Part shown: piece by piece, positions 4,701 to 49,058 of the stretch
How the letters are laid out: every line of letters begins with the position of its first letter
Position numbering within the stretch: position 1 is the stretch's first letter
From: an uncultured Gammaproteobacteria bacterium
Lineage (GTDB): Bacteria > Pseudomonadota > Gammaproteobacteria > CAWJOP01
Direction of reading: 5' to 3'
DNA: 64,000 nucleotides
NCBI GenBank assembly: GCA_963844535.1
Contig: CAWJOP010000008.1
Span: forward strand, 196,801 to 260,800
Position numbers and translations under genes: made by a program
Notes under the pieces: model-generated
What the model saw: only the letters and a program-made list of their open reading frames with translations
Databases searched by the model: none
Told to the model about the DNA's origin: nothing

Positions 4701-5665
4701 TCATCACGAATCTCCCCGCCTGAACCCGTCGCAGCACCTGGAAACGGCGCAATTGCAGTAGGATGATTATGCGTTTCCACTTTGATCAAGATATGAATAG
4801 GTTCTTCTTGGCTACGATAAATTAACTGTTTTGGATCATAAAAAAAACGTTCGCCATAAGAACCCGCTAAAATAGCGGCATTATCTTGATAAGCCGATAA
4901 AACTCCGTCAGGATTTTTTTGATAGGTGTTACGAATCATCGAAAACAAAGAATGTGGCGCTAAAACACCATCAATTGTCCAACGTGCATTAAAAATTTTA
5001 TGCCGACAATGCTCTGAATTTGCTTGTGCGAACATCATCAATTCAACATCGGTTGGATTTCTATCCAGCCCCTGATAAACCGTTAAGAAATATTTTATTT
5101 CAGCTTCATTCAGTGCAAGCCCTAACGATTCATTTGCTGCTTGCAATGCGCTTTCTCCTTTTCGCAATACATCAATCTCAGTGAGTGGGGCTGGCTCTTT
5201 GGTGGTAAACAATTGATATGCATTTTCAAACGAATAAAAAACCGTTTCTAACATACGGTCATGTAAAATTTCACTGGCTTTAAACAGCTCAGAACGACTC
5301 AATGAATCATGAGATATTTCTAAATAAAAACTAATTCCGCGTTCTAATCGCTTAACGGTGGAAAAGCCACATAAATGCGCAATATCAGTAGCTTTAGTTG
5401 ACCACGGCGAAACAGTACCTATGCGTGGCACTACTAAACATAGTTCTGCAGGATGAATAAATTGCCTGGGTGATAGTAATTTTTGATTCAGCAAATGTGT
5501 AAGCCGCGCTAAAGTATCTACTGATAATGGTTCAGTGCTCTCAACAAAATACTCATAAAAAGCTTGTATGCTGATAATCGAAGGAAAACTAGCTTTTAAT
5601 ATCGATAAATATTTTTCAAGTCGAAAATCCGATAAAGCAACATCGCCTGCCAGGTGTAATATCAT
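1751..5665 (-). CDS. purL: phosphoribosylformylglycinamidine (FGAM) synthase, single-chain large PurL
   Basis: 1304-aa ORF with an N-terminal PurS-like region, an AIR-synthase-related middle domain and a C-terminal glutamine amidotransferase (GVCNGCQMM). Length and motifs are typical of gammaproteobacterial PurL. Confidence 0.95.
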   Translation of the reverse strand: MILHLAGDVALSDFRLEKYLSILKASFPSIISIQAFYEYFVESTEPLSVDTLARLTHLLNQKLLSPRQFIHPAELCLVVPRIGTVSPWSTKATDIAHLCGFSTVKRLERGISFYLEISHDSLSRSELFKASEILHDRMLETVFYSFENAYQLFTTKEPAPLTEIDVLRKGESALQAANESLGLALNEAEIKYFLTVYQGLDRNPTDVELMMFAQANSEHCRHKIFNARWTIDGVLAPHSLFSMIRNTYQKNPDGVLSAYQDNAAILAGSYGERFFYDPKQLIYRSQEEPIHILIKVETHNHPTAIAPFPGAATGSGGEIRDEGATGRGAKPKAGLVGFSVSHLRIPGFIQPWETPLKKPAHIAASLEIMLTGPIGSASFNNEFGRPNICGYFRTFEYQNPNCAEVIRGYHKPIMLAGGIGNIRAMHTHKNQIAEGDYIIVLGGPALLIGLGGGAASSLDANNMRVDLDFASVQRANPEMQRRCQEVIDQCCALGEENPIVAIHDVGAGGLSNAIPELVHESERGAHIQLRAIPSDDPHLSPLEIWCNEAQERYVLAVNPKHLTLFETIAQRERCPFAVVGAATLEQKLLIEDSYFQNKPIDLPMSALFGKPPKLEIQAASTAYSYAPDLKTHEELTKFSIEKLNEIASRVLKFPAVASKSFLITIGDRTVGGLIARDPMVGPWQVPVADAGVTASGFTGYSGEAMAIGERTPLGIMNAAAAARMAVGEAITNIACANIHQLADVKLSANWMAAAKVSGEEIALFEAVKTVGLEICPDLKISIPVGKDSLSMQMQWNEGDVLQKVIAPVSPVISAFAKVVDIRKTLTPLLSREENTELWLIDLGQGKNRLGGSVLMQVYGYLGEECPDVDNPLRLQNFFSVIQLLNQQNLILAYHDRSDGGLWATLCEMAFASHIGIKINIPVTQNPIKFLFNEELGAVLQIRAENKTKVLAMIQEYNLENKFIPIATSTAKDDMVVIQEDKILLQQSRVELQKTWSETSFRMQALRDNPACAEEEFQTLSDVDDKGLYASLKFDPTEDISKPYINLARPQLAILREQGVNGQVEMAAAFTRAGFDCFDVHMSDLQNGRVTLDKFLGFVAVGGFSYGDVLGAGRGWANTILHDAKLFDAFSAFFNREHTFALGVCNGCQMMAQLKSLIPGADHWPQFVRNRSEQFEARFSMVEITPSPAVLFVDMVGSQLPVAIAHGEGRAEWLTAAEFSAAKAAHTIALRYIDHYGNQTEKYPANPNGSPLGTAGVTNQDGRFTILMPHPERVFRTVQWSWHPDSWGEDSPWMRMFRNLRVFVD

Positions 5666-7043: not shown

Positions 7044-7742
7044 CTACAAAGCCACAATATGCAAATGCTCATCTTCAAGATAAATTTGTGTACCCTTAGT
7101 CAATGCGGTTTTTTTTGCTTCCTCATTAACCCAATAATGTCCTGCAATTGAAACTAATTCTGCTTCTAGCGTTTGACAAAAAATTCTTGCCTGTTTATTA
7201 CCTTTTACTCCAGCTAATGCCCTGCCTCTTAGTGGTCCATAAATATGAATATGTCCATCAGCAATTAACTCAGCACCTGGGCTCACTGACGCTAACACAA
7301 TAAGATCTTTATTCTGCGCATAAATTTGTTGGCCTGAACGCACTGGTTGAGTAATCACCACCGCAAAATTCTCAACTGGAGGATCAAGTGATTTTACTTC
7401 ACTGCCATGTTCATCTTTTATTTTGGTAGAGCGATTTAAAATCGCCCAATTGGCTAATACGGCTTTTTTCTGTTGTGATTCACTGCCACCACAAATAGCC
7501 ACTGGAATAAAACCTTCCTTTCTTAAGATTTCATTTAACTTTACAAAATCCAACTGCTCAATGGTATGTACTTTTTGCAAATCAACCATGAGAGGAATAT
7601 GCTGAAAAAATCCTGGATTTTTCTGAATCAATGTATTTAATTGCTTGGCAAGACTATTAAGGTCATCCGATAAAAGCTGCAATACTGTCAAAGTAAAAAT
7701 GCTGCCTTTAAGCTGAAAAGCTACCTGATTTTTGGTTATCAT
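7044..7742 (-). CDS. minC: septum site-determining protein MinC
   Basis: 232 aa. The C-terminal domain [66 protein letters not shown] matches the MinC beta-helical dimerisation domain. No minD or minE lie downstream in this window. Confidence 0.85.
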
Positions 7743-9242
7743 TGTTTTGTCTCCTCTCCTTTTAGATCCTGTTTAGAATCTCGCCACACCAAATTAAGTT
7801 CTCTGGCTGCTTTAACATCATCGAGACGACGAACAGGTTGATGATAAGGCGCTTTTTTCAATTGGTCTGGATTAGTAGTAGCCTCTTTTAAAATTGCAAT
7901 CATTGCACAAGCAAATCCATCCAACGTTTGCTTCGATTCCGTTTCAGTTGGCTCAATTAATAAGCATTCTGGAACTAACAAAGGGAAATACATCGTCGGT
8001 GCATGAAATCCATAATCAAGTAAACGTTTGGCAACATCCATAGCCGTCACACCAAATTGTTTTGCTTCTTTACTTAAGGTAATAATAAATTCATGGCTTG
8101 CACGTCTTGCAGGAAAAGCGAGGGTAAATCCTGCTTTTTTGAGTCGAGCCATTAAATAATTTGCATTTAATGTTGCAAATTCTGCAACTCGTTTAAGGCC
8201 TTCTCGTCCTAACAAACGTGCATAAATATAAGCACGTAAAATAATTCCGGCATTCCCCATAAAAGTAGATAATCGTCCAATCGTTTGTGGACGATCTATC
8301 TTTATCAACCAACATAACTATCACCTTTTTTGCCTACAATCGGTGCGGGTAAAAAAGGCACTACACGTTCACTAACCGCCACTGGCCCGACCCTGGACCA
8401 CCACCACCATGCGGTGTAGCAAAAGTTTTATGTAAATTAATATGCATAACATCAAAACCCATATCACCTGGTCTTACTTTGCCTAAAATGGCATTAAGAT
8501 TTGCGCCATCGTAGTATAAGAGCCCACCCGCTTGATGCACTAATTGCGCAATTTCTTCAATATGCCTTTCAAATACGCCTAATGTCGATGGATTAGTTAA
8601 CATAATCCCCGCAGTTTTAGGGCCAACTGCTTTTTTAAGTTCTTCAAAATCCATATCACCATCAGCTTTCGTCGGAATTTCGCGAACTTTAAAACCACAC
8701 ATCACTGCTGATGCTGGATTAGTCCCATGCGCTGCATCTGGCACTAAAATTTCATCACGCTCATGATCACCACGCGCTAAATGATAAGCGCGAATCATTG
8801 CAACTCCAGCAAACTCACCTTGCGCTCCAGCCATTGGTGTTAACGAAACTCCCGCCATACCAGTGACTTCAATTAAAATTTCTTGCAAATCATAAACGCA
8901 AGCTAAAAATCCTTGACTGTGAATTTCTAGGGCTAATGGATGTCATTGTAAAAAACCTGGCATTGAAGCAATCCGATGCACCCCGCGAGGATTGTATTTC
9001 ATGGTGCAAGATCCCAGCGGATAAAAATGAGTATCAATCGAAAAATTCTTCTGTGACAATCTCGTGTAGTGCCTTACAACTTGTAATTCAGAAGTTTCAG
9101 GCAAAAGAGGTTTCGTACGTCTTAACAACGCCGCCGGTAAATCACTGCTATCACCCAAGGTTCCAAGCAACTGTGCACCAGCATTTCGGCCTTGTTGTGA
9201 ATATTCAAAAATGGTTTTATTTTCTAAATCGAGGATGGTCAT
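7739..9242 (-). pseudogene. gcvPB: glycine dehydrogenase (decarboxylating) subunit 2, GcvPB, disrupted by at least two 1-bp frameshifts
   Basis: Three consecutive minus-strand ORFs at 8943..9242, 8361..8888 and 7739..8308 together encode the N-terminal, middle and C-terminal parts of a ~485-aa GcvPB (FYPLGSCTMKYNP.., HGTNPASA.., [20 protein letters not shown].., [10 protein letters not shown].., [17 protein letters not shown]). One shift is a CC-for-CCC run at ~8370 that turns GSGP VAV into GSGQW. A second shift lies near 8306-8312, and another is between 8888 and 8943. Confidence 0.7.
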
Positions 9243-9279
9243 AGTTGTCTTCTTAATAAATATAAAATGACAGTTCTTT

Positions 9280-10662
9280 TTAAACTGATGCGCATGAGTT
9301 TTCGCTGATATAACAGCGCTTAACCGCCTCACAAAATACCTCTAAATCCCTTTCACTCTTTGTCTCAGTCGCACAAATCAATAAACATTCACCCAATTCT
9401 GGATAATGCACTGAAGTTGCATAACCTCCTTCGATACCAAGACGAGATAATGCTAATAATATATCAGCCGCTTTTTTCTCCGTACGAACTAAAATCTCAT
9501 GAAAATAAAGGCGATTAAATACCGGTAAAATTCCCGGAATTTTCGTAATCTTATTGAACAGTTTTCGGGTATTTTCATGGCAATTTATTGCAACTTGCCG
9601 TAATCCTTCTGCGCCCATTAAACTCAGGTAAATCGTAACTGCAGTAACTAACAACCCTTGATTAGTACAAATATTAGAAGTCGCTTTAGCACGTCGAATA
9701 TGTTGTTCACGCGCTTGCAAGGTTAAAGCAAATCCTGGTTTGCCATCTAAATCTACTGTTTTGCCCACAATACGCCCCGGCATTTGTCTGACATAGGCTT
9801 CTTTACAACACATAAAACCTACATATGGCCCACCTGAAGCTAATGGCACACCTAAAGGCTGCGCTTCACCGCAAACAATATCTGCACCGGTTTCTCCCCA
9901 TTTACCCGGCTCTTTAAATAACGCCAAAGCAAGCGGGTTAACCACTGCAATCACTAAAGCACCTTTGCGATGTGCCCAATCTGTTAATTGATCCACTTCT
10001 TCTAAAATTCCAAAAAAATTAGGCTGCGGAATAATCAATGCAGCAATATCTGTATCGCCTAATGCATTTAATGATTCAAGCGGTGTATTCCCTTCTGTAA
10101 AAGAATAAGGCAAATCAACCAATTCAATTTGCTGCGGCGTAACAATAGTGGAAATCACTTCACGATAGTAAGGATGTAACGTTTTTGGCACTAATATACG
10201 TCGAGATTTCGTTTGACGATTAGCACGAACTGCCATGAAAACCGCTTCTGCCAAAGCAGATGCACCATCATACATCGAGGCATTAGAAACATCCATGCCG
10301 GTTAAACTTGCCATCATGGTTTGATATTCATACAAAAGCTGCAAAGTTCCTTGACTTGCTTCTGCCTGATAAGGCGTATATGCAGTCATATATTCGCCTC
10401 GGCCGACAATATCCCAAACTGCTGCTGGAATATAATGTTCATATGCGCCTGCACCAATAAAACATAATGATGAAACGTCCTGTTCGGCATATTCACGCAT
10501 CAGTTTAACTACTGCTAATTCAGACAAGCCTTCCGGAATTTTAGTGGATAATTCTTTACGTAGATTTTTAGGAATTTCATCAAATAAGCTTTCAATTGAA
10601 GGGCTATCAATTTCTGCTAACATTTGTTGAACATCATTTGCTGTATGTGGAATAAATGGCAT
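9280..10662 (-). CDS. gcvPA: glycine dehydrogenase (decarboxylating) subunit 1, GcvPA
   Basis: 460 aa with typical GcvPA motifs ([27 protein letters not shown]). It sits between gcvH and gcvPB. Confidence 0.9.
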
Positions 10663-21151: not shown

Positions 21152-22126
21152 TTATTCCAACACATCAAGCAGATAACCAATAATTCTTCTTTCCAAATAA
21201 AATTGCGGGGAAAATGGTACACGCCCTTCAATGAAACCCACATGCCCTCCATACGATAAAATTTCTAGTTTAACCTCGACAGGAAGCTCGAGTGGATTAG
21301 GCAAGGCATGCTTGGGGAAAAAAGGATCATCGGCCGCTTGAATAATTAAAGTGCGCGTTTTAATTCTATTTAAATACTGTTGACTGCTCGATCTTGCGTA
21401 ATAATCATGCACATCCAAAAAACCATGCATTGGTGCGGTTATTTTGTCATCAAACTCCCAAAAAGTAGTTACCCTATTGAGTTCTTTTTTATGTTTAAAA
21501 AGTCTTTCACTGGACTGAAATTTTTTTAATACCGCTTTTTTTAAAGACTTTAATAACCACCACTGATATAGTCGTGAAAATCCTGTATTCAATTGATTTG
21601 CTGCTTGCTTCAAATCAAACGGCACCGAAACAGCAACTGCAGCATTAATGCGCAGGTGATTGGGATTCTCAGCCAACCATTTTAATAACACATTGCCACC
21701 CAATGAATAACCAATAATACAAACAGCAGTATCCGCGTTGATATTTGCCCATAGACTTGTGAGAAATTCAGTTAAATCTTGAGTTTCTCCCGCATGGTAA
21801 CCCTTTTTTAACCGTGTTTTATCTTGATCGTCACCACAACCTCTAAACTGCATACAAACACTTCTAAAACCATATTCAATTGATTTTTGCATCATGCCTT
21901 TTATATAAGCCGAAGCAGATGAACCACCTAACCCATGTAAAAACACTAAAATAGGCTTATTTTCAAACCTATTTTTACTCCAATCAAGCAAAAGAAAATC
22001 ACCATCGGATAAAATAAACTTTTCTCGTAATAAAGAGATTTTTATTTTCCTTGGAAAGATAACCGGAAAAAGAGTTTGTAGATGCCTGTTTTTCAGCCAC
22101 CAGGCAGGTTTAAAAGCAGTTAACAT
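21152..22126 (-). CDS. alpha/beta-fold hydrolase, YheT-like
   Basis: 324 aa with a nucleophile elbow GYSLGGN and an HG oxyanion motif (LVFLHGLGGSS). The architecture resembles E. coli YheT-family esterases. Confidence 0.8.
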   Translation of the reverse strand: MLTAFKPAWWLKNRHLQTLFPVIFPRKIKISLLREKFILSDGDFLLLDWSKNRFENKPILVFLHGLGGSSASAYIKGMMQKSIEYGFRSVCMQFRGCGDDQDKTRLKKGYHAGETQDLTEFLTSLWANINADTAVCIIGYSLGGNVLLKWLAENPNHLRINAAVAVSVPFDLKQAANQLNTGFSRLYQWWLLKSLKKAVLKKFQSSERLFKHKKELNRVTTFWEFDDKITAPMHGFLDVHDYYARSSSQQYLNRIKTRTLIIQAADDPFFPKHALPNPLELPVEVKLEILSYGGHVGFIEGRVPFSPQFYLERRIIGYLLDVLE

Positions 22127-22149
22127 TTAGCGCTCAAGGATCTTAGGGC

Positions 22150-22262
22150 CTGTTGACAATTTATCTCAAACCCTACGTTCCCGCGGCTTGTCCGCGGGAT
22201 CTATGGAGCAGGATCCATGGATCCCGCGAACAAGTCGTGGCAGCGGCACGTCGCAGGGTGTG
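22150..22262. repeat. family A REP-like palindromic element (long form)
   Basis: TTGACAATTTATCTCAAACCCTACGTTCCCGCGGCTTGTCCGCGGGATCTATGG..GGATCCATGGATCCCGCGAACAAGTCGTGGCAGCGGCACGTCG. It lies upstream of the divergent hydrolase and DUF2282 genes. Confidence 0.55.
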
Positions 22263-22335
22263 AATAGTTACAATAAATTTTTATTCTACATCAATTGGTA
22301 GTGATATACTGCTCGCAATTAAAAAAGGAACTTTT

Positions 22336-22632
22336 ATGCTCAAAAAAAATCAAATACTTCAATCAGCTATTGCTGGCGTTCTTGCTTTAACTTCAGTAAA
22401 TCAAGCCAATGCGCACAACGCTGTAACTTCACCAGAAATGGAAAAATGTTATGGCATTGTCAAAGCAGGAATGAATGATTGCCAAACCTCCAGTCAAAGC
22501 TGTGCGGGCTCTGCCATTAAAGATAAACAGTCTGACGCTTTTATTTTTTTACCTAAAGGAACTTGTCATAAAATCGTTGGTGGAAGTTTGCAACCGCCAG
22601 TAGTACAAAATGATGATAAAAATAAAAAATAA
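22336..22632 (+). CDS. DUF2282 (BufA1-type) Cys-containing RiPP precursor with a signal peptide (bufferin-like)
   Basis: 98 aa with a Sec signal peptide. The core EKCYGIVKAGMNDCQTSSQSCAGSAIKDKQSDAFIFLPKGTCHKIVGG has the four Cys spacing and the EKCYG..AG.NDC..SCAG...GTC motif of DUF2282 precursors, which MNIO (DUF692) enzymes modify. Confidence 0.75.
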   Translation: MLKKNQILQSAIAGVLALTSVNQANAHNAVTSPEMEKCYGIVKAGMNDCQTSSQSCAGSAIKDKQSDAFIFLPKGTCHKIVGGSLQPPVVQNDDKNKK

Positions 22633-23475
22633 TGCCACTGGTATTGGTCTTCGCGCCACACACTATCATGAAATCATAAGCAATCAGCCTAAAATTACTT
22701 GGCTTGAAGTACATAGTGAAAATTATTTTGGCAAAGGCGGAAAACCGCTCAATTATCTAACTCAAATCCACCAACACTACCCGCTCAGCTTTCATGGGGT
22801 AGGACTATCACTAGGATTCTACTGATCCACTCAATTTGCTTCATCTTAAACAACTGAAAAAACTGATAGATCAATTCAATCCTATTTTTATTTCTGAGCA
22901 TTTATGCTGGTCGTCAATTGACGGACGCTATCTGCATGATTTATTACCATTACCTTATACTGAAGAAGCTTTAAATTTATGTATTGATAAAATCAATCAA
23001 ATTCAAGATTTTTTGAATCGTAAAATTTTAATTGAAAATATTTCGAGTTATTTGCAATTTACTGATAACACCATGCCAGAATATGAATTTATCAACAAAA
23101 TTGTTGCGCAAACTGGCTGCGGGATATTATTAGATCTCACTAATCTTTACATTAATAGTGTTAATCATCATTGGGAACGTTGCACTTTATTTACAGCATA
23201 TTCCAACACACACTATAGATGAAATTCATCTGGCTGGATTTACCACAAATCATTTTGCAAATGGTTTCATGTTGATTGATACTCATGATCAAGCGATTGA
23301 TGCAAATGTGTGGAAATTGTATACGCAAGTTATCAGTAAATTTGGGCCAAAACCTACGCTTATTGAATGGGATAAGAATATCCCCAAATTATCCACGCTT
23401 TTAGCCGAAGCCGAAAAAGCTAATGGTATTTTATTAAACAATAATCTCGCCAAACATGACTATATCCTTACGTAA
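22613..23475 (+). pseudogene. DUF692/MNIO (MbnB/BufB-like TIM-barrel oxidase) gene interrupted by two frameshifts
   Basis: Three overlapping ORFs at 22610..22825, 22836..23222 and 23158..23475 together reconstitute one DUF692 protein (GIGLRATHYHEI.., WLEVHSENYF.., HGVGLSLG | STDPLNLLHLKQLK..SEHLCW.., LLPLPYTEEAL.., ILIENISSY.., GCGILLDLTNLYINSVNHHW | ALYLQHIP.., IDEIHLAGF.., LIDTHDQ.., PTLIEWD). One shift is an extra T at ~22818 and the other a 1-bp loss at ~23185. Confidence 0.65.
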
Positions 23476-24289
23476 ATTACAACTTGCTTTTAGACATGCC
23501 ATATTGGGCGATAAAAAAATTTCATTAAGTTCGCATATCGAGCAAAATGGTCTTACCTCTAAACAAAGGATACAAATTTACCAAAATAATGTTTTCTTCA
23601 CTTTAACTGCGGCACTAAAAAGCATTTATCCTACTATTCATCAAATACTGGCAGAACCATCTTTCTTAGCTATTGCACATCATTACATCGTTCGTTATCC
23701 ATCGAACTTCGGCGACATCAGCTCTTTTGGCATGCACTTTGGAAAGTTTCTGGCTAATTCCTTAGCAACAAAATCTTTTCCCTATTTAAAAGAAATAGCT
23801 AATTTAGAATGGGCTTACCATGAAGTATTTCACGAAGAAGAAGTTGAATACTTCGAACTAAATAAGCTAAAAACAGTCTCAGCCGAAAAATATTCACAGA
23901 TAAAATTTAACCTAAATCCTGCTTGCCGCTTACTTTCCTGCAAATACCCTATTTTATCGATTTGGCAATATTATCAGCAGCAAAAAACGTCGCCGTTTTC
24001 GCCGTCATTGCAAGCACATCATTGCGAGGAGCACTTGCGCCCCGTGGCAAATGATGCGTGTGGCAATCCAACGCCACAGAGGGAAAAAATACTAATTATC
24101 CGGCGATCATCAGACATTACATTTGAAAAATTAACCGAAGGTGAATTTGCTTTATTGTCTGCTTTTAGCAAAGGATTGGCTTTCAAACAATCACATACAC
24201 TTGCATTAAAATCAGATATGACATTTAATATTGAAGCCTATTTAAAACAAGCTGTTTTACAAAAAATTATTGTGGATTTTTACTTTTAA
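23456..24289 (+). CDS. DUF2063-family protein (MbnC/BufC-like partner of MNIO)
   Basis: 277 aa. It sits 3' of and overlaps the MNIO gene, as in DUF692-DUF2063 pairs. The N-terminal region (QLAFRHAILGD.., IYQNNVFFTLTAALKSIYPTIHQILAEPSF..) is consistent with DUF2063. It contains a segment encoded by a degenerate family C repeat. Confidence 0.6.
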   Translation: MTISLRKLQLAFRHAILGDKKISLSSHIEQNGLTSKQRIQIYQNNVFFTLTAALKSIYPTIHQILAEPSFLAIAHHYIVRYPSNFGDISSFGMHFGKFLANSLATKSFPYLKEIANLEWAYHEVFHEEEVEYFELNKLKTVSAEKYSQIKFNLNPACRLLSCKYPILSIWQYYQQQKTSPFSPSLQAHHCEEHLRPVANDACGNPTPQREKILIIRRSSDITFEKLTEGEFALLSAFSKGLAFKQSHTLALKSDMTFNIEAYLKQAVLQKIIVDFYF

Positions 24290-24301
24290 GGATATCGCCT
24301 C

Positions 24302-24883
24302 ATGAAGAATCTCTTTCGTGTATTTTTTTTGTTTGCTTCATTGTTCCCTTTCTCAATCGTAATTAACGCCGCGCCAATAAACTACACGCTTGACCCGAAC
24401 CACACTTATGTTTTATGGCACATTAACCATTTTGGATTCTCTAATCCTTCAGGTAAATGGATGGCGGCAGGCAACTTAGTTTTAGATAAAGACAACCCCC
24501 AAAATAGCCAGGTAAAAGCTACCATCGATCTTAATAATCTTGCTACCGGTGTTGCAGAATTAGATAAACACTTAAAAGAAAAATTATTCTTTGATGTTAC
24601 ACAATTTCCAACCGCCTCATTTGTTAGCAATAGCGTAGATGTAACCAGTAAAACTACGGCGAAAGTACATGGTACCTTAACACTTCACGGTATTTCTAAA
24701 CCAGTTACATTAAATGTCACCTTCAACAAAGCAGCAGCAAACCCAATTACTAATAAAGATTCCGTTGGTTTTAGTGCCACAACAACTCTGAAACGTTCTG
24801 ATTTTGGCATAACCACACTACTACCTGGAGTAAGTGATGAAGTAAAAATTAACATTGAAGCAGAAGCCTACAAAACAATGTAA
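24302..24883 (+). CDS. yceI: YceI-family periplasmic polyisoprenoid-binding protein
   Basis: 193 aa with a signal peptide and the YceI lipocalin-like pattern (YTLDPNHTYVLWHINHFGFSNPSGKW.., FFDVTQFPTASF.., HGTLTLHGISKPVTL.., LKRSDFGI). Confidence 0.85.
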   Translation: MKNLFRVFFLFASLFPFSIVINAAPINYTLDPNHTYVLWHINHFGFSNPSGKWMAAGNLVLDKDNPQNSQVKATIDLNNLATGVAELDKHLKEKLFFDVTQFPTASFVSNSVDVTSKTTAKVHGTLTLHGISKPVTLNVTFNKAAANPITNKDSVGFSATTTLKRSDFGITTLLPGVSDEVKINIEAEAYKTM

Positions 24884-24894
24884 GAGGTATATTA

Positions 24895-25434
24895 ATGCAG
24901 CTTAAGAATACTAAAGATGGCTTTGGCATTATCTCAATTATCATCCATTGGCTAATGGCGTTGTTAATTATCGGGCTTTTAGCAGAAGGGCTTTATATGG
25001 AACGAATTAGCATCAGTGTACAAAAACTAGAGCTTTATGGACTACATAAAGAATTTGGTATTTTAGTGCTCATGTTAGTTGTCGTTCGGTTAATTTGGCG
25101 TATCGAAAATATCACTCCCTCTCTCGATTCTCTTATCTATTTAGAAAGGCTAGCTGCACGAAGTATGCACATTGCTTTTTATATATTTATGTTTTTGTTA
25201 CCCCTCACTGGTTGGGCAATTTCTCAAGCAGCAGGACTGCCGGTGTCATTTTTTGGTCTTTTCTTGCTACCAGATTTCATTCGTCCCAATGAGCATTTAC
25301 AACAATTATTTACCGAGATTCATGAATGGTTAGCCTATGCTTTAATTTTAGCAATCTGTGGTCATGTTGCGGCTGCATTGAAACACCATTTTATCGACAA
25401 AGACACTATTCTAAAAAGGATGCTTTGGCCATGA
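24895..25434 (+). CDS. cybB: cytochrome b561 family protein (CybB/YceJ-like)
   Basis: 179 aa with 4 TM helices and conserved His ligands (IIIHWLMALLI.., LHKEFGILVL.., HIAFYIFMFLLPLTGW.., HEWLAYALI). It is adjacent to yceI, as for E. coli yceJ-yceI. Confidence 0.85.
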   Translation: MQLKNTKDGFGIISIIIHWLMALLIIGLLAEGLYMERISISVQKLELYGLHKEFGILVLMLVVVRLIWRIENITPSLDSLIYLERLAARSMHIAFYIFMFLLPLTGWAISQAAGLPVSFFGLFLLPDFIRPNEHLQQLFTEIHEWLAYALILAICGHVAAALKHHFIDKDTILKRMLWP

Positions 25435-26003
25435 TTAAACCTATCAGTAAAATTTTATTAGCTGGATTAGTAATGATCTTAGCGAGTAACACGCATGCTG
25501 AAGTAGCCGCATGGCACATCGTTGCTAATAAAAGCAATCTTACTTTTAAAGCTATTCAAAACAATGCCCCAGTAACAGGAAGTTTTAAACTTTTCAGTGG
25601 AGAAATTAAATTTGATCCTAATCAACCTTCGTCAGGCTATGCGCACATTATCGTCGACATGAATTCAATTACCACATCTTACAAAGTGATTGAAGATACC
25701 CTGAAAACTTCAGATTGGTTTGACACTAAACAATTTCCTCAATCAGTGTTTACTACTTCACATATTAAGAAAATAAACGATACCGCGTATCAAGTTGATG
25801 GCAACTTGACCATCCGTGATAAAACTTTGCCCATAACCTTAACCTGTACACTAAACAATTATGCAAAAACCAATGCTCGGATCGAGGGATCAACACACTT
25901 AAAGCGAACTGCTTTTGGTGTAGGTAGAGGAGAGTGGGCAAAAACCGACTCAATAAAAGATGATATTGAAGTATATTTTTTACTAATTTTAACCCGCACT
26001 TAA
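25431..26003 (+). CDS. yceI: second YceI-family protein
   Basis: The ATG at 25431 overlaps the cybB stop (ATGA). There is a signal peptide (MIKPISKILLAGLVMILASNTHA), then the YceI pattern (WHIVANKSNLTFKAIQNNAPVTGSF.., WFDTKQFPQSVF.., DGNLTIRDKTLPITL.., LKRTAFGV). The track ORF is 5'-extended to 25326. Confidence 0.8.
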   Translation: MIKPISKILLAGLVMILASNTHAEVAAWHIVANKSNLTFKAIQNNAPVTGSFKLFSGEIKFDPNQPSSGYAHIIVDMNSITTSYKVIEDTLKTSDWFDTKQFPQSVFTTSHIKKINDTAYQVDGNLTIRDKTLPITLTCTLNNYAKTNARIEGSTHLKRTAFGVGRGEWAKTDSIKDDIEVYFLLILTRT

Positions 26004-26035
26004 TTAGTTTATTTAAAGTATTATTACACTTGCTC

Positions 26036-26150
26036 AGTCCCCTTCCCGTGAGGCCGTCATTGCGAGCACCTGTAGGGTGCGAAGCAATCCAGAAATTATA
26101 AATATTTTTACTGGATTGCCACGCGCTTCGCGCTCGCAATGACGGTCTTA
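26036..26150. repeat. family C palindromic element (GTCATTGCGAG...GCAATCCAG...CTCGCAATGAC)
   Basis: ..CCCTTCCCGTGAGGCCGTCATTGCGAGC..GAAGCAATCCAG..CTGGATTGCCACGCGCTTCGCGCTCGCAATGACGG... It has both outer and inner inverted repeats and is a near-copy of the element at 35258..35410. Confidence 0.55.
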
Positions 26151-26271
26151 CGAAGTAGAAACTAAGCTTTTACATTTCTATTTCAAGCAATTAAAAATTT
26201 TTCCTATCTAAATATTTTTTTGACTCTTCAAAAAAATGTGATACCTTGTTCGCTTTTTTCCTAGGGCCTGT

Positions 26272-26433
26272 TTACATTTGATTTGCCATAGCGAGAAAAG
26301 CAGGGATGTAAGCTAGAAGTTTGCCAAATCTGAGGAGAATACTAAGTCGTATTTGACGAAGATTCGGCAAAATTCTAGCAAATCCTATGCTTTTCGCAGC
26401 AGGTAAATCAAATGTAAACAGGCCCTTTTTTTT
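26272..26433. repeat. ~150-bp long imperfect hairpin with perfect 23-bp terminal inverted repeats and a 3' T8 run; candidate sRNA or MITE
   Basis: GGCCTGTTTACATTTGATTTGCC at 26273 pairs with GGTAAATCAAATGTAAACAGGCC at ~26403, followed by TTTTTTTT. The interior also partly self-complements (GCGAGAAAAGCA / TGCTTTTCGC). It lies just upstream of the autotransporter gene. Confidence 0.4.
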
Positions 26434-26455
26434 ATAACCATAAGAGAAAATAACA

Positions 26456-29014
26456 ATGCTTCATAATTTTAATTATTTAAAAAACAATTGTTCGCTTTTT
26501 TTAATAGCCTTATCTTTTTTAGGCTTATTTTCTCAAGCTGCATTTGCCACCACTTATCAATGGAATGTAGTTTCAGGTGATTGGGAAACAGAATCTAATT
26601 GGCTTCCTATGACTCCCCCGGGGCCACCTACCAGCGCAGATACTGCAGAGATTGATAACGGTGGAACTGCTATAGTATTCGCTGGGGATAATTCTTTAGC
26701 ATCAACCGTCAATTTGGGTGTCAACACTACTTCAAATATATTAAATATCGATGCAGGTGGTACGCTCAACATTACTAACAACCTTAACATAGCAAGTACT
26801 GCTACTTCTTCTGGTGCATTAACTCTTATGGGCCAGTTGTTTGTTAATCAAATTCAAGCGGGTATGGGCACTGCGGTTATTAACTTTAACGGCGGAACCT
26901 TACAAGCTGGAACTACTTCTGCATCGAACCTGATCGTAGGCGGATTTGCTTCCAGTAACTTAAACATCGAAAGCGGTGGACTCACCATTGATGACCAGGG
27001 CAATAACATCACTGAAAACCCTTCAGATATGTTTGGATTTAGTGGTCAAGGTAGCTTTACTAAAACGGGCACCGGTGTTGTGACCTTCAACGACCTCACC
27101 AATAATTATCAAGGTGATACGACGGTTGCCGAAGGTACGTTAACCATCAGCGGCGGTACCTTAGGCACCGTGAATGGCAATATCCAATTAGCGACCCTAA
27201 GTAATGCCACCTTAAATATTAATAACGGTGCTGCAGTCACTGCGAATACCGTCACTTTAGGTGACCCAGCTGGAACCCTTAATCTCGGTGGTGGCCCTGG
27301 CTCTCCAGGTACTTTGAGTACCAATCAGTTGATTGCAGGCAATAGCGGAAGTGTGGCTAACTTTAATAATGGCACATTAATCGCACTTTCCAGCAATGCT
27401 AACTTCATCACTGGGTTTAGCAGCGGTAATTTGGTCACCAATAGTCCAGATGGTGTGATTATCGATAGCAATGGCTTTAATATTGGGGTTGCGGATAGTG
27501 GATTTACGGGTAATGGAGGTCTTACAAAAACCGGCGCGGGTACGCTGACATTAAGTGGTACGAATACCTACTCAGGTACTACGACGATTGATGAAGGCAT
27601 CATACAGGCAGGGGCTGCTAATACCCTTAGCCCATTTTCCAATCATGTGGTTGATGCTAATACTGAGCTTAATCTTGCTGGTTTCCCACAAACGATTGCT
27701 GGGTTAACGAATAACGGGTTAGTCTCCTTAGCAGGTACTACGGCTGGAAATCAACTCACGGTGACTGGGAATTTAGGTTCTGGTAACGGCACTTTTGCAT
27801 TCTTAACCAATTTAGGTGCATTAGTGGGTGATCATATGAGCGTCGGAGGAACCAGCGCAGGCAGTTACCTAGTTCAAGTCACCAACCAAGGTAACAATCC
27901 AACGACTCCAGGTCAGTCCTTAGAACTTATTTCTACTACGGACGGTGTGGCTCAATTTGCGTTACAAGGTGGACAAGTTGATGCAGGTATTTTGGTATAT
28001 ACCTTACAAGAAGGCTTAGGCGTACCGGGTACTGAAGACAACTGGTATCTTGTGAATAGTGGCTTAACGCCTACGGGTAAGAACATCGTTGCAACCGCGT
28101 TGACTCCATCGATTTGGGCGACCCAGTTTGATGATGTGTACAAACGTATGGGTGAGTTACGTCAAGGAATCTGCCGATGCTGTGATGGTTGTGCACGCTA
28201 TGGACAAATCAAAAATAATGTATGGGTCCGTAATTACGATGAGCGTATCAACGTTAATAGCGATGTTGCTGGCGATCCGTTCCATGTTTACTTATACGGT
28301 GCTGACGTGGGTATAGACAAAGGCTTTACCACAGCCTGTGGCAATCAAGTGTTTGCTGGTGCGTTCTTAGGATACGGAAGAAGTAGTCCTATCTTCTCAT
28401 CATCATCAGGCAGTATAGATACCAATGCACCTTATGCGGGTGTTTACGGTACTTGGTTGAATCAATGTGGTTGGTATGTAGATGGCGTTGTTAAAGCACA
28501 ACGTTTTTACAATAAATTCAATACATTGACTACATCCGGCAGCAATCTAGATGACACAACCTATAACCAGTGGAGTGTAGGCGCGTCTGCTCAGGCAGGT
28601 AAACGCTTCTGTGCAAAAAATGGCTTCTTTGTTGAACCACAAGCGCAAATTACCTATACACACTTTAATGGAGCAAACTATATAGCTGATGATATTTTCC
28701 CAGTAAGTGTTGGCAACACGGAAATAACTCAAGCTAGAGGCATGTTAATGGTCGGTCGTACATTTAACCAATGTGGAAAATTCTTTGAACCTTACGTAAA
28801 ATTCGGAGAAGCTACACAAAATAGCCATGGTACTAATGTTGATGTTGCCGGAATGCACTTTCGTCCTAACTTAGACGGGGCACGAACTGAAGTAGGTGCA
28901 GGGTTTGCTTATGGATGCAACCACGTACAGTTCCATGCTGATTACAAAGCGGTTAACGGCCCAGATTACAATATTCCATGGGCAATTAACGTAGGCTTCC
29001 GATATATCATGTAA
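26456..29014 (+). CDS. classical (type Va) autotransporter with passenger-associated beta-strand (PATR) repeats and a C-terminal beta-barrel
   Basis: 852 aa with a signal peptide. The Gly/Thr/Asn-rich passenger has repeated TGxGTLTLSG.NTYSGxTTI units (autotransporter-associated beta-strand repeats). The C-terminal ~280 aa have alternating aromatic/hydrophobic residues and end in ..NVGFRYIM. Confidence 0.85.
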   Translation: MLHNFNYLKNNCSLFLIALSFLGLFSQAAFATTYQWNVVSGDWETESNWLPMTPPGPPTSADTAEIDNGGTAIVFAGDNSLASTVNLGVNTTSNILNIDAGGTLNITNNLNIASTATSSGALTLMGQLFVNQIQAGMGTAVINFNGGTLQAGTTSASNLIVGGFASSNLNIESGGLTIDDQGNNITENPSDMFGFSGQGSFTKTGTGVVTFNDLTNNYQGDTTVAEGTLTISGGTLGTVNGNIQLATLSNATLNINNGAAVTANTVTLGDPAGTLNLGGGPGSPGTLSTNQLIAGNSGSVANFNNGTLIALSSNANFITGFSSGNLVTNSPDGVIIDSNGFNIGVADSGFTGNGGLTKTGAGTLTLSGTNTYSGTTTIDEGIIQAGAANTLSPFSNHVVDANTELNLAGFPQTIAGLTNNGLVSLAGTTAGNQLTVTGNLGSGNGTFAFLTNLGALVGDHMSVGGTSAGSYLVQVTNQGNNPTTPGQSLELISTTDGVAQFALQGGQVDAGILVYTLQEGLGVPGTEDNWYLVNSGLTPTGKNIVATALTPSIWATQFDDVYKRMGELRQGICRCCDGCARYGQIKNNVWVRNYDERINVNSDVAGDPFHVYLYGADVGIDKGFTTACGNQVFAGAFLGYGRSSPIFSSSSGSIDTNAPYAGVYGTWLNQCGWYVDGVVKAQRFYNKFNTLTTSGSNLDDTTYNQWSVGASAQAGKRFCAKNGFFVEPQAQITYTHFNGANYIADDIFPVSVGNTEITQARGMLMVGRTFNQCGKFFEPYVKFGEATQNSHGTNVDVAGMHFRPNLDGARTEVGAGFAYGCNHVQFHADYKAVNGPDYNIPWAINVGFRYIM

Positions 29015-31034: not shown

Positions 31035-32693
31035 ATGGACATTATCAATATTAGCTTAGCTTTTCTCGAAGGATTTGCACTGATCATTTCGCCCTGTATT
31101 TTGCCTATTTTGCCGATTGTTTTAGCCGGCTCTTTGGTCGGCAGTAAAAAAAGGCCTCTAGGGATCATTGTAGGTTTTGTGATTACTTTTGCGCTATTTA
31201 CTTTTTTCTCGCGCAAACTCGTGCAGTATTCTGGTATCGACTTAAATTTTATTCGCTACTTTTCTTACGCTATTCTGCTATTACTTGCTATCGTGATTTT
31301 ATCCAACAAGCTCACAGAAAAATTTAGTCAATTCACCCAAAAATTTGCTAATACTGGATTAACCTTATCTTTCGTTAACAATCCACAAGGTGGTTTTATT
31401 AGCGGTACGCTATTCGGTGGGCTAGTAGCAATCATTTGGACTCCTTGTGCAGGACCAATTTTAGCTGCAGTTATTGTGCAAACTGTGGTGCAAAAAACCA
31501 ATATTATGAGTTTTCTAACTTTGCTTGCTTTTGCTTTTGGTGCAGCTGTTCCTATGTTAATCATTGCATTTTTTGGCAGAAGCATCATAACTAAATTTAA
31601 TTTTTTCAAAAGCCACTCATTATTATGGCGAAAAATTTTGGGCAGCATCATCATTTTAGCGGTTATTTTCATGATAACTTCCGAGCAAAAATTACCTAAT
31701 TTATTTGCAGCGCCAATCAATCAGCAATCTAGCAATCAACCCACCTTAAATCATTTACAAAATAGCTTACTAACTTCTTATCCAGAACCTGAAATTTCTG
31801 GCATTACTGCTTGGCTTAATTCAGCACCATTACAATTAAAAGATTTGCGTGGCAAAGTGGTGTTAATTGATTTTTGGACTTATTCTTGCATCAATTGTAT
31901 TCGTACGCTTCCTTATCTAAAGGATTGGTATAACAAATATCATTCAGCCGGTTTGGTGATCATTGGCGTGCATACTCCAGAGTTTGATTTTGAAAAAAAT
32001 TTGAATAATGTAAAGAATGCAGTAGAAAAATTTGGTATTAAATATCCTGTTGCGCTCGATAATCAATTCGTAACCTGGCAAAACTTCAACAACGCATTTT
32101 GGCCAGCACATTATTTGATCAATCGTGAGGGGAATGTGGTATACACACATTTCGGCGAGGGGGAATATGCTACCACTGAAAACAATATTCGCTTTTTACT
32201 TGGGATAAAAGCTCCTCTATCATCCAATCAAGCCGCAGAAGAACCATTTTCGTTTACAGAAACTCCAGAAACTTATTTAGGTTACGAAAGAGCTAATAGT
32301 TTTGCCAGTCCAGAAGATGTCATCCATGATCAAAAAACTTTTTATACTCTACCAAAAACACTACCTCTCCACAATTTTGCATTATATGGTAACTGGATTA
32401 TCAGGCCAGACAGAATTATCGCTGCTCAAGATAATGCTGTTTTAAAAATTCATTTTCGTGCACGTAAAGTATTTATGGTGATGGGTAGCACAACACCAAC
32501 ATCTATAGAGTTATTATTAAATGACAAAAAAGTTACCAGTGAAAAAGGCAAAGACGTAGTTAATAGTTACATTACAGTTACTGCACACCGGCTGTATGAA
32601 GCAATTACACTGCCACAAGCACAGGAAGGAGTTTTGCAAATCACTTCATCAAAGCCTGGATTAGAGTTGTATACATTTACCTTTGGCGAATAA
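31035..32693 (+). CDS. CcdA/DsbD-like transmembrane thiol-disulfide transporter fused to a periplasmic thioredoxin (TlpA/ResA-like) domain
   Basis: 552 aa. The N-terminal membrane domain has the Cys pair LIISPCILPIL and WTPCAGPIL (CcdA/DsbD family). The middle domain has a thioredoxin CxxC, DFWTYSCINCIRTLPYL. A C-terminal ~150 aa have no recognised domain. Confidence 0.75.
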   Translation: MDIINISLAFLEGFALIISPCILPILPIVLAGSLVGSKKRPLGIIVGFVITFALFTFFSRKLVQYSGIDLNFIRYFSYAILLLLAIVILSNKLTEKFSQFTQKFANTGLTLSFVNNPQGGFISGTLFGGLVAIIWTPCAGPILAAVIVQTVVQKTNIMSFLTLLAFAFGAAVPMLIIAFFGRSIITKFNFFKSHSLLWRKILGSIIILAVIFMITSEQKLPNLFAAPINQQSSNQPTLNHLQNSLLTSYPEPEISGITAWLNSAPLQLKDLRGKVVLIDFWTYSCINCIRTLPYLKDWYNKYHSAGLVIIGVHTPEFDFEKNLNNVKNAVEKFGIKYPVALDNQFVTWQNFNNAFWPAHYLINREGNVVYTHFGEGEYATTENNIRFLLGIKAPLSSNQAAEEPFSFTETPETYLGYERANSFASPEDVIHDQKTFYTLPKTLPLHNFALYGNWIIRPDRIIAAQDNAVLKIHFRARKVFMVMGSTTPTSIELLLNDKKVTSEKGKDVVNSYITVTAHRLYEAITLPQAQEGVLQITSSKPGLELYTFTFGE

Positions 32694-34441: not shown

Positions 34442-35257
34442 ATGGCAAAACCTATCTACGACACTATTGGCAAAAGTTATGATAACACGCGTCAAGCTGA
34501 CCCAGAGATTGTTAAAAAATTGCTGGAATTACTTGGCCCAATAGAAAAAGGAAAATATTTAGATCTTGGTTGCGGTTCTGGCAATTATACGGGTGCTTTA
34601 GCTGCAATGGGATTAACCATTGAAGGGGTTGATCTTTCTCTTGAAATGTTAACAAAAGCGAAAACTAAATACCCTAATGTTTTGTTCCATCAAGGTGATG
34701 CAAAGCAATTAGCTTTTCAAGATAATTCATTCAATGGTGCAGTATCTATTTTAGCTACTCATCATATTGGCGATAATTCTAAACTATTTCACCAAGCTTA
34801 TCGCATTATTAAGCAGGGACGACTGGTAATTTTTACTGCCACTCCTGAACAAATGCAGCATTATTGGCTTTGGCATTATTTTCCTAAAATGATGCAAGGT
34901 TCTGCTGCCATTATGACAAGTTTTGACAAATTAAAAGCAACATTAGAACAAGCTGGATTTAGCTCAATTGAAAAATATCCTTTCTTTATCTCCAATCAAC
35001 TACAAGATTGGTTTTTGCATTCTGGTAAATACCGTCCTGAAATATATCTTGATGAAAAAGTACGCGCAGGAATTTCATCATTTCAACTATTTGCTAACTC
35101 AGCTGAATTGACCCAGGGGCTAAAACAACTTAAAGCTGATATTGACTCAGGTGAAATTGATAAAGTCATTGCGCACTATGCAAGCGATGAAAGCGATTAT
35201 TTGTTTATTTCTGCTGAAAAAAGTGTAGTATTTATCGATGGCTTTAGTCTCATGTAA
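34442..35257 (+). CDS. class I SAM-dependent methyltransferase
   Basis: 271 aa with motif I LDLGCGSGNYTGALA and a post-I acidic residue GVDLSLEML. Its TAA stop lies within the terminus of the family C element. Confidence 0.8.
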   Translation: MAKPIYDTIGKSYDNTRQADPEIVKKLLELLGPIEKGKYLDLGCGSGNYTGALAAMGLTIEGVDLSLEMLTKAKTKYPNVLFHQGDAKQLAFQDNSFNGAVSILATHHIGDNSKLFHQAYRIIKQGRLVIFTATPEQMQHYWLWHYFPKMMQGSAAIMTSFDKLKATLEQAGFSSIEKYPFFISNQLQDWFLHSGKYRPEIYLDEKVRAGISSFQLFANSAELTQGLKQLKADIDSGEIDKVIAHYASDESDYLFISAEKSVVFIDGFSLM

Positions 35258-35410
35258 AAGCTTAGTCTCTCCCGTGAGGCCGTCATTGCGAGGCTTGAGT
35301 TTTTTGCAAGCCGAAGCAATCCAGCAAAGAAATTTAAGCATTTTTACTGGATTGCCGCGCGCATCCTGCGCTCGCAATGACGGCCTCACGGGAGAGGCTG
35401 AGCTTTTACA
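35258..35410. repeat. family C palindromic element, most complete copy (~150 bp, ~33-bp terminal inverted repeats)
   Basis: GCTTAGTCTCTCCCGTGAGGCCGTCATTGCGAGG..GCCGAAGCAATCCAGC..GCTGGATTGCCGCGCGCATCCTGCGCTCGCAATGACGGCCTCACGGGAGAGGCTGAGC. It sits between the methyltransferase stop and the EamA gene start. The internal ORFs at 35147..35389 and 35238..35459 are artefacts of the palindrome. Confidence 0.6.
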
Positions 35411-49010: not shown

Positions 49011-49058
49011 CTCCGCTGCCTACGTGCCGCTGCCACGACTTGTTTGCGGCATCTACAG
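49011..49058. repeat. family A REP-like half element
   Basis: CTCCGCTGCCTACGTGCCGCTGCCACGACTTGTTTGCGGCATCTACAG is the reverse-complement match to the right half of the 22150 element. Confidence 0.45.

Follow-up and report, generated by a model that had tools for sequence, protein, structure and literature searches.

The usual DoxX gene of a Buf1-type bufferin gene cluster is replaced by a yceI-cybB-yceI module in an uncultured Legionellales-like gammaproteobacterium, and the comparisons described below indicate that this exchange is a conserved, selected and clade-specific variant, not debris or a by-product of decay. Among MNIO-modified peptides, bufferins form the largest family, and they constitute a widespread copper defense. 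The cluster was investigated in a stretch of 64,000 nucleotides (nt) of contig CAWJOP010000008.1, here called the window, in which the open reading frame (ORF) listing and direct reading gave six genes on the same strand (+), bufA-bufB-bufC-yceI-cybB-yceI, at positions 22336-26003. Its protein families and gene order make the locus a bufferin gene cluster of the Buf1 type and thus a member of a known family. The best explanation overall, which we regard as probable by a little, is a six-gene, DoxX-less Buf1 variant in which bufB, the gene of the MNIO maturase, was recently inactivated or is polymorphic and in which an insert in BufC, the partner of the maturase, is tolerated.

A bufferin gene cluster with YceI and cytochrome b561 in the DoxX position

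Families were assigned with curated Pfam and NCBIfam profiles and their curated cutoffs. The first gene, bufA (22336..22632, +), encodes a Buf1-type bufferin precursor of 98 amino acids (aa) (PF10048, DUF2282/BufA1; E 3.4e-24, 85 bits versus a cutoff of 22.4). Reading of the sequence gave a Sec signal peptide with a likely cleavage site after ...NQANA and, behind it, a four-Cys core (C38, C49, C56 and C77); these four Cys residues are kept in all seven relatives compared. BufA2 membership of the precursor was rejected, since its NCBIfam score was 25 bits versus a cutoff of 60, and the precursor is of the Buf1/DUF2282 type. The MNIO bufferin maturase gene, bufB (22610..23475, +), is disrupted and was recognized on three fragments by NF050167 (BufB) and PF05114; it overlaps the 3' end of bufA by 23 nt and the start of bufC by 20 nt. 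The third gene, bufC (23456..24289, +), is intact and encodes a DUF2063/TglI-like MNIO partner of 277 aa (PF09836; E 2.3e-16, 60.3 bits versus a cutoff of 27.2). An earlier reading of the DNA letters (the sequence-only reading) had proposed a bufferin-type MNIO operon for a ribosomally synthesized and posttranslationally modified peptide (RiPP), with DUF2282, DUF692 and DUF2063 genes, and the profile searches agree with it, since all three families were assigned to these genes.

The downstream part of the cluster consists of yceI-1 (24302..24883, +; PF04264, E 8e-45), which encodes a periplasmic YceI-family lipocalin with a signal peptide, a cybB/lcoA-like gene of a membrane cytochrome b561 (24895..25434, +; PF01292, E 2.9e-32) and yceI-2 (25431..26003, +; PF04264, E 8.8e-33), which encodes a second YceI-family protein. 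The start codon of yceI-2 overlaps the cybB stop (ATGA), and the gene is called as 190 aa in L001, a 4841-nt Logan contig of run ERR10755945 that was found by exact look-up of the BufA protein. The genes are tightly packed, with 12 nt between bufC and yceI-1, 11 nt between yceI-1 and cybB and -4 nt between cybB and yceI-2. Profile searches gave no DoxX match anywhere in the 64-kb window and no second MNIO, BufA or BufC elsewhere in it. Together with the PF04264, PF01292 and PF04264 matches, this confirmed the sequence-only reading of a yceI-cybB-yceI module without DoxX at 24302-26003. Minus-strand ORFs across the interval are short and unsupported, scans of the entire 64 kb for Rfam families and tRNAs returned no matches, and a promoter/terminator consensus scan of 22050-26500 yielded a number of sites not above that in shuffled sequences. 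No regulator, whether sigma/anti-sigma or other, was seen beside the cluster, the upstream neighbor being an alpha/beta-hydrolase gene divergent from bufA.

As the sequence-only reading had suggested, synteny in relatives was compared, by looking at the genes around the closest homologues of BufB and of BufC. The complete order bufA-bufB-bufC-yceI-cybB-yceI was observed in L002 (BufB 88% identical), in L003 (BufB 64% identical) and in L004, a Candidatus Berkiella metagenome-assembled genome (MAG; GCA_050247135.1). L096/97, a genome with SidM- and ankyrin-type genes, reads bufA-bufB, a 4-kb insertion and bufC-yceI-cybB, and L095 and L098, which belong to a bufB-less sub-clade, read bufA-bufC-yceI-cybB(-yceI). 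The adjacency of bufC and yceI is therefore conserved in seven lineages (window/L001, L002, L003, L004, L095, L096/97 and L098), in all of them on the same strand and with a gap of 11-32 nt, at BufC identities down to ~40%. The canonical order bufA-bufB-bufC-DoxX was found in a named Legionella, Legionella brunensis (L006; BufB 62% identical). For a background census, a BufB profile scan of a genome collection provided 80 bufferin loci that are more distant, with a BufB 47-58% identical; among the matches listed, DoxX follows bufC in ~62 of these 80 loci, and YceI or b561 occurs in none.

The ratio of nonsynonymous to synonymous substitution rates (dN/dS) between L001 and L002 was 0.09-0.28 across the six genes (bufA 0.17, bufB 0.18, bufC 0.28, yceI-1 0.14, cybB 0.09 and yceI-2 0.18). 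Since the module is conserved in seven lineages and all six genes have such ratios, the exchange of DoxX for YceI/b561/YceI is, on this comparative evidence, a selected variant and not debris. The sequence-only reading had offered a decaying locus and an unusual YceI/b561 variant as alternatives. They turned out not to be alternatives, each being true in part: the variant is conserved in seven lineages and under selection, and bufB is broken in the deposit.

This sub-variant has been noted once before, in passing only, in a legend that mentions, for Legionella pneumophila subsp. fraseri, a bufferin cluster with YceI paired with a cytochrome b (Fig. S4 of PMC12452194). The main texts of two bufferin survey papers (PMC11626156 and PMC12452194) do not mention YceI/b561, and no paper combining YceI with DUF692 was found in the literature searched.

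One point weighs against treating the six genes as one system, namely, that the case for co-transcription of yceI/cybB with bufABC is made from spacing and synteny only. The yceI-cybB-yceI genes could instead form an independent, neighboring envelope stress operon that sits at the DoxX place without any functional tie to the bufferin. YceI and b561 genes are indeed linked in many Gram-negative bacteria that lack bufferin genes next to them (PMC9113575), none of the 80 distant bufferin loci listed carries them, and 4 kb part bufA-bufB from bufC-yceI-cybB in L096/97. However, the linkage of bufC and yceI outlasts both this 4-kb insertion and the deletion of bufB, and the short same-strand gap persists in all seven lineages in spite of BufC identities as low as ~40%. 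Moreover, the consensus scan found no terminator-like site between bufC and yceI, and redox membrane proteins (DoxX, ferric-reductase-like and oxidored_molybd) are recurrent bufferin accessories (PMC12452194). We thus consider an independent operon unlikely and retain the six-gene variant.

In L004, the cluster (L004 1-5688) lies directly downstream of genes for an outer membrane factor (OEP), a CusB-like adaptor with a CusF domain, a resistance-nodulation-division (RND) pump (cusCBA-like) and a TetR regulator, a neighborhood whose gene content is consistent with a metal-stress island. As a separate observation, a NicO-family nickel/cobalt transporter gene (L098 3262-3945, -) is located directly downstream of the bufB-less cluster of L098.

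Two frameshifts in the deposited bufB

The bufB gene of the window is split into three fragments, all on the plus strand, at 22610-22825, 22836-23222 and 23158-23475, which correspond to BufB profile positions 1-60, 69-187 and 182-261. Among the NCBIfam models they match NF050167 ("MNIO family bufferin maturase") best, and in Pfam they match MbnB_TglH_ChrH (PF05114). Alignment of L001 with window 22186-27028 revealed 0 mismatches and exactly 2 gaps, which are the two extra bases in bufB, and both extra bases are also absent from L088, a Joint Genome Institute (JGI) metagenome contig that is 97.8% identical to the window. The first is a 1-nt T insertion at 22817..22818 (+; GGATTC versus GGATC), precisely where the sequence-only reading had placed a frameshift (~22818). 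The second is a 1-nt A insertion at 23176..23177 (+; GGGAACG versus GGGACG); here too the reading had recognized a frameshift, but its position, ~23185, was off by ~9 nt.

As written, bufB reaches a TGA stop at 22823-22825 after 69 native residues, and since the two 1-nt insertions truncate BufB in this way, the locus as written cannot make its own maturase. In L001, bufB is a single ORF of 286 aa (P0001) that equals the repaired window bufB. The repaired BufB scored 385.3 bits on NF050167 (cutoff 310), far above its own HvfB, MbnB, ChrH and ApyH scores, and matched PDB entry 3bww (DUF692) as well as MbnB. L001, L088 and L002 all have an intact bufB, and the MNIO disruption is confined, among the sequences compared, to the deposited one. 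The frameshifts belong to the public deposit, since MNIO fragments of 70 aa and 105 aa are annotated on the deposited NCBI/ENA contig (291,599 nt) itself.

We then asked whether the break is a real lesion. The dN/dS of bufB was 0.18 versus L002 (dS 0.31) and 0.08 between L001 and L088, indicating that bufB was functional and under purifying selection until essentially the present. Two explanations of the break follow, a loss or polymorphism that is very recent and specific to the strain, or an assembly artifact; any "decay" of bufB would accordingly be very recent at most, if it is not an artifact of assembly. We lean toward a real and very recent lesion or polymorphism at the strain level. 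A general long-read indel error across the assembly was rejected, since all six indels found between the window and independent contigs over 13.7 kb fall in only two genes, bufB and gcvPB, and homopolymers agree, as illustrated by the A8 tract at 22341-48, which is the same in the window and L001. Long ORFs, of up to 1304 aa, are also intact across the 64 kb.

Several observations do not sit easily with a real lesion. That a gene of 861 nt has two independent 1-nt insertions while 4.8 kb contain zero substitutions is an odd pattern for natural mutation, and the probability that two random differences would both land in bufB is 3%. Natural mutations are mostly substitutions, and an indel-only pattern is no less compatible with a local error of assembly or consensus. 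In addition, the one ERR10755945 assembly examined (L001) carries the intact bufB allele. Both frameshifts could thus be assembly or consensus errors in the deposited MAG, the organism having an intact, working bufABC-yceI-cybB-yceI operon. Such an artifact would account for an independent Logan assembly (ERR10755945) that is the same over 4841 nt except for these two bases and encodes an intact 286-aa BufB, for the equally intact bufB of a second, 97.8% identical strain, for strong purifying selection on bufB up to the present (dN/dS 0.08) and for indels that come without substitutions, which is unusual for natural decay. The first insertion also abolishes a GATC motif, and GATC contexts are a source of errors on some long-read platforms.

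Against an artifact, the window is otherwise clean (agreement at A8 22341-48; ORFs up to 1304 aa), so that no general indel-error process is evident, and the loss of bufB has a clear precedent in a sister lineage. Moreover, the strain has real pseudogenes. The gcvPB gene, for subunit 2 of the glycine cleavage P-protein (7739-9332, -), is split into three ORFs. Logan contig L093 has an intact gcvPB allele of 501 aa, from which the window gene is separated by 36 substitutions (24 nonsynonymous and 12 synonymous, with one stop gain) and 4 indels. This neutral-looking 2:1 ratio of nonsynonymous to synonymous changes is not that of sequencing error. The diverged tract spans ~7935-10394 and includes the adjoining gcvPA, with 5 synonymous and 2 nonsynonymous changes (7-9 differences, mostly synonymous); its flanks (minC, a major facilitator superfamily [MFS] transporter gene, gcvT and gcvH) are ~100% identical, and exact look-up of the window gcvPA product gave no match. 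The tract looks like a diverged haplotype with an old pseudogene and cannot be sequencing error. Taken together, we regard errors in the deposit as a serious possibility that falls short of probable, and continue to prefer a recent strain-level lesion or polymorphism.

A third explanation is that bufB is expressed via two programmed +1 ribosomal frameshifts. Each lesion would in fact need a +1 shift, and stops of the old frame follow at 22823-25 and 23220-22. Neither site, however, resembles the prfB-type +1 slippery site (CUU UGA), the first one reading GGA UUC UAC UGA, and the 100%- and 97.8%-identical strains, like all other relatives, have a single-frame BufB. To our knowledge, two programmed +1 sites in one gene are unprecedented. 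Programmed frameshifting was thus rejected as extremely improbable.

Loss and damage of bufB in related lineages

In L094 and L095, which are 99.8% identical to each other, and in L098, whose BufC is 81% identical to theirs, bufA is followed by bufC after 54-87 nt, and tblastn found no trace of an MNIO remnant in these three. The deletion junction shares a common motif, GGCATTTTTTC..GATAAA, in L094, L095 and L098, which argues for one ancestral deletion of bufB. Within this bufB-less sub-clade (dS 0.26-0.42), dN/dS was 0.34 for bufA, 0.26 for bufC and 0.14 for yceI-1; the synonymous excess was significant for bufA (Fisher p 0.003) and bufC (p 2e-9), and all four Cys are kept. Precursor and partner have therefore been maintained without a local maturase, and by these sequence comparisons a cis-encoded maturase is demonstrably dispensable in the clade.

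Other members of the clade have suffered insertions. An inverted-repeat element of ~165 nt, of another family, lies just after codon 8 of the L002 bufB (L002 2806-2975); the gene now starts inside the element, with the new N terminus MSELFRAHSL.... In L088, a complete palindromic element (L088 3859-4019, window ~23438), 89% identical to window 35254-35393, is inserted in the last 11 codons of bufB, and a 7-nt TATTAAA duplication flanks this copy, which indicates that the palindromic elements are or were recently mobile. A 56-nt insertion in L094 (~5472-5508), relative to the 99.8%-identical L095, frameshifts yceI-1. Erosion of bufB is a real theme in the clade, the gene having been deleted in one sub-clade and struck by mobile elements in two others.

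The deletion in L094, L095 and L098 and the frameshifts in the window are two independent observations that, combined with bufA and bufC still under purifying selection over dS ~0.3, point to the possibility that bufA, bufC, yceI, cybB and yceI could be a functional unit without need of a locally encoded MNIO in this Legionellales-like clade. We consider such a unit quite improbable for now. Many bufferin precursors are unlinked to MNIO genes and may undergo modification in trans or none, and Legionella genomes contain up to seven MNIO genes (PMC12452194). The search for an MNIO that could act in trans covered 64 kb of the genome and found none, which weighs against the six-gene variant with a recently inactivated bufB.

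An in-frame insert in bufC and palindromic elements of the window

In an alignment with four orthologues, the BufC of the window has ~20 additional residues, TSPFSPSLQAHHCEEHLRPVANDACGNPTPQ (~178-208), which are absent in three relatives and shorter in L002. At the DNA level, protein and DNA alignments locate at ~24001..24070 (+) what is left, in frame, of a single arm of a palindromic mobile element, including a 33-nt segment (~24018-24050) that is absent in L002. The GC content of the insert is 58%, versus 35% for the gene. One arm of the element family found at 26031-26160 and 35241-35410 can be aligned with the insert. This relationship is clearest for the L002 insert, which aligns to an element arm at window 35338-35396(-) over ~33/38 positions; the window insert shares the flanks GCCGTCATTGC..GGCAATCCA with that arm. 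Taken alone, the window insert gave only a moderate local score of 32, versus 20 +/- 3.5 for shuffles (maximum 34), and blastn-short of the insert against the window returned no match at E < 0.01, the kinship being visible only via the better-preserved L002 copy.

The fold z score of the insert was 0.03, versus -7.9 to -10.6 for the intact elements at 22151-22270, 26031-26160 and 35241-35390, so that the insert is a one-arm remnant that is no longer palindromic. Neither a second arm nor terminal inverted repeats nor a target-site duplication were recognizable at the bufC insert. The sequence-only reading had described an in-frame palindrome in the DUF2063 gene. Its in-frame, element-derived insert was found again, but the palindrome is reduced to one arm and is shared with L002. 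Since it is common to L002, the insertion is old.

Because a PDB sequence search with the BufC profile gave 0 matches, the fold of BufC was compared via a predicted model. The AlphaFold2 model (predicted local distance difference test score [pLDDT], 80.8; predicted template modeling score [pTM], 0.75) matched TglI (8hci_A, E 3e-7) and NGO1945 (3dee, E 3e-4) in Foldseek, in line with the N-terminal helical and C-terminal RRE-like domains expected of a DUF2063 partner. The insert residues 179-202, with pLDDT below 50, form a loop between a helix at 166-176 and the first strand of the C-terminal domain at 210-217, and the flanks have pLDDT of at least 90. The in-frame insertion is probably tolerated, and the model predicts that it is a disordered surface loop. 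BufC was also tried as an HvfC equivalog, and this assignment was rejected with an NCBIfam HvfC score of 47.8 versus a cutoff of 142.

[quoted passage not shown] Family one comprises 18500-18559, 22151-22270 and 49022-49049, and family two comprises 21122-21147, 26031-26160 and 35241-35410. The element at 22151..22270 (inverted repeat 22176-22245) is situated in the bufA promoter region, between the alpha/beta-hydrolase gene and bufA; its predicted RNA fold has an energy of -63 kcal/mol (z -7.85), and related copies are those at 18500-18559 and 49022-49049. The bufA promoter of L088 has an element of a different family at the same place (L088 2545-2680). An intact element at 26031..26160 (fold -65.5 kcal/mol, z -10.6), similar to 35241-35410 and, by alignment, of the same family as the bufC insert, closes the gene cluster and could serve as a terminator hairpin. 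Short-read contigs of the same organism break inside the palindromes, as does L001, which starts at 22186.

Among the neighbors, a pertactin-type autotransporter is encoded immediately downstream of the cluster (26456-29014), and a fused DsbD-type transmembrane/redoxin/thioredoxin-like protein, with an envelope thiol-redox function, is encoded 5 kb downstream (31035-32693). Upstream, 18706-21042 encodes a 778-aa low-complexity protein, rich in Q, T, P and S, that contains internal repeats and lacks a Pfam match; with 86.6% nucleotide identity between strains and many indels, versus ~98% for its neighbors, it may be a fast-evolving surface or effector protein. The region 53600-58320 is gene poor, with short broken ORFs, of which the fragments at 57582-57901 look like transposase/integrase remnants, and it adjoins the gene of a 575-aa protein without Pfam match; it is probably a degraded mobile-element island.

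Comparison with known systems

The closest known counterpart is the Buf1 cluster bufA1B1C1D1 ("gig" operons) of Caulobacter vibrioides, Cupriavidus metallidurans and Legionella pneumophila (PMC11626156). Both systems have a DUF2282 precursor with a Sec signal and four Cys, followed in the same order, with overlapping or tight packing, by a BufB-equivalog MNIO and a DUF2063 partner. The window differs in the yceI-cybB-yceI genes that follow bufC without a DoxX gene (bufD), in its twice-frameshifted bufB and in the element-derived loop of ~20 residues in BufC. It also has an alpha/beta-hydrolase gene upstream, whereas no sigma/anti-sigma or other regulator was seen adjoining the cluster.

The cluster CA927_RS07990 of L. 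pneumophila subsp. fraseri (Fig. S4 legend of PMC12452194), compared here by its legend alone, similarly combines YceI with cytochrome b. The same legend states that a truncated bufferin gene in another cluster of the fraseri genome suggests a loss of function. In contrast to that legend mention, the conservation, selection and double-YceI layout are analyzed here, and the window organism is distant: its MurA is at most 75% identical to that of any named MAG and its BufB at most 65% identical to named Legionella/Berkiella proteins.

A secreted YceI gene also adjoins a membrane cytochrome b561 gene in BcnA/LcoA of Burkholderia cenocepacia, which detoxifies lipid-peroxyl radicals and has an associated aldehyde reductase, PsrA, and in yceJ-yceI of Escherichia coli (PMC9113575), but in the window two YceI genes flank the cytochrome gene, and the module is joined to a RiPP cluster. 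The bufC insert, finally, recalls the Rickettsia palindromic elements and in-frame MITEs (reviewed in PMC10969869), being a short, GC-rich, repeat-derived in-frame segment that occurs in a conserved gene, in two lineages and in a predicted surface loop. It differs from these in that it consists of one arm without hairpin potential; its family is unrelated by name, and intact copies measure ~130-170 nt.

Discussion

By analogy with characterized bufferins, BufB and BufC would convert the two central Cys residues of BufA (C49 and C56) to 5-thiooxazoles in the cytoplasm, whereupon the Sec signal peptide would export a product of ~72 aa to the periplasm. There, the outer Cys residues (C38 and C77) would form a disulfide, and the heterocycles would chelate excess copper. 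In the Caulobacter system, BufB and BufC install the thiooxazoles, and DoxX is dispensable for modification and protection; DoxX (BufD) is a frequent but not universal fourth core gene (PMC11626156). The yceI, cybB and yceI genes, which their spacing and synteny suggest are co-transcribed with bufABC, may supply an envelope redox function or a defense against lipid peroxidation in the place of DoxX, as YceI/BcnA with cytochrome b561/LcoA limits lipid peroxidation (PMC9113575). An envelope redox role for YceI/b561 fits, since other bufferin clusters hold redox accessories and L004 has a cus-type neighbor. With bufB truncated as in the deposit, BufA would either depend on an MNIO from another locus for its modification or work without being modified.

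The frameshifts matter mainly as an annotation caveat for calling the locus a pseudogene. If the bufA-bufC-yceI-cybB-yceI unit, against our expectation, did function without a local MNIO, and if no MNIO acted in trans, BufA could be an unmodified Cys-thiolate metal binder, BufC could have an MNIO-independent role, or the YceI/b561 pair could act on the periplasmic peptide through redox chemistry; each of these options would amount to a way of operating that is new for the largest MNIO-RiPP family. The clade offers natural maturase "knockouts," by deletion and by frameshift, in which precursor and partner are kept, and thereby bears on the choice between modification in trans and unmodified action. 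The clade-wide, selected exchange of DoxX for YceI/b561, for its part, supports the idea of an interchangeable envelope-redox function at the accessory position of bufferin clusters and suggests a possible link, testable in Legionella, between this accessory and defense against lipid peroxidation or superoxide.

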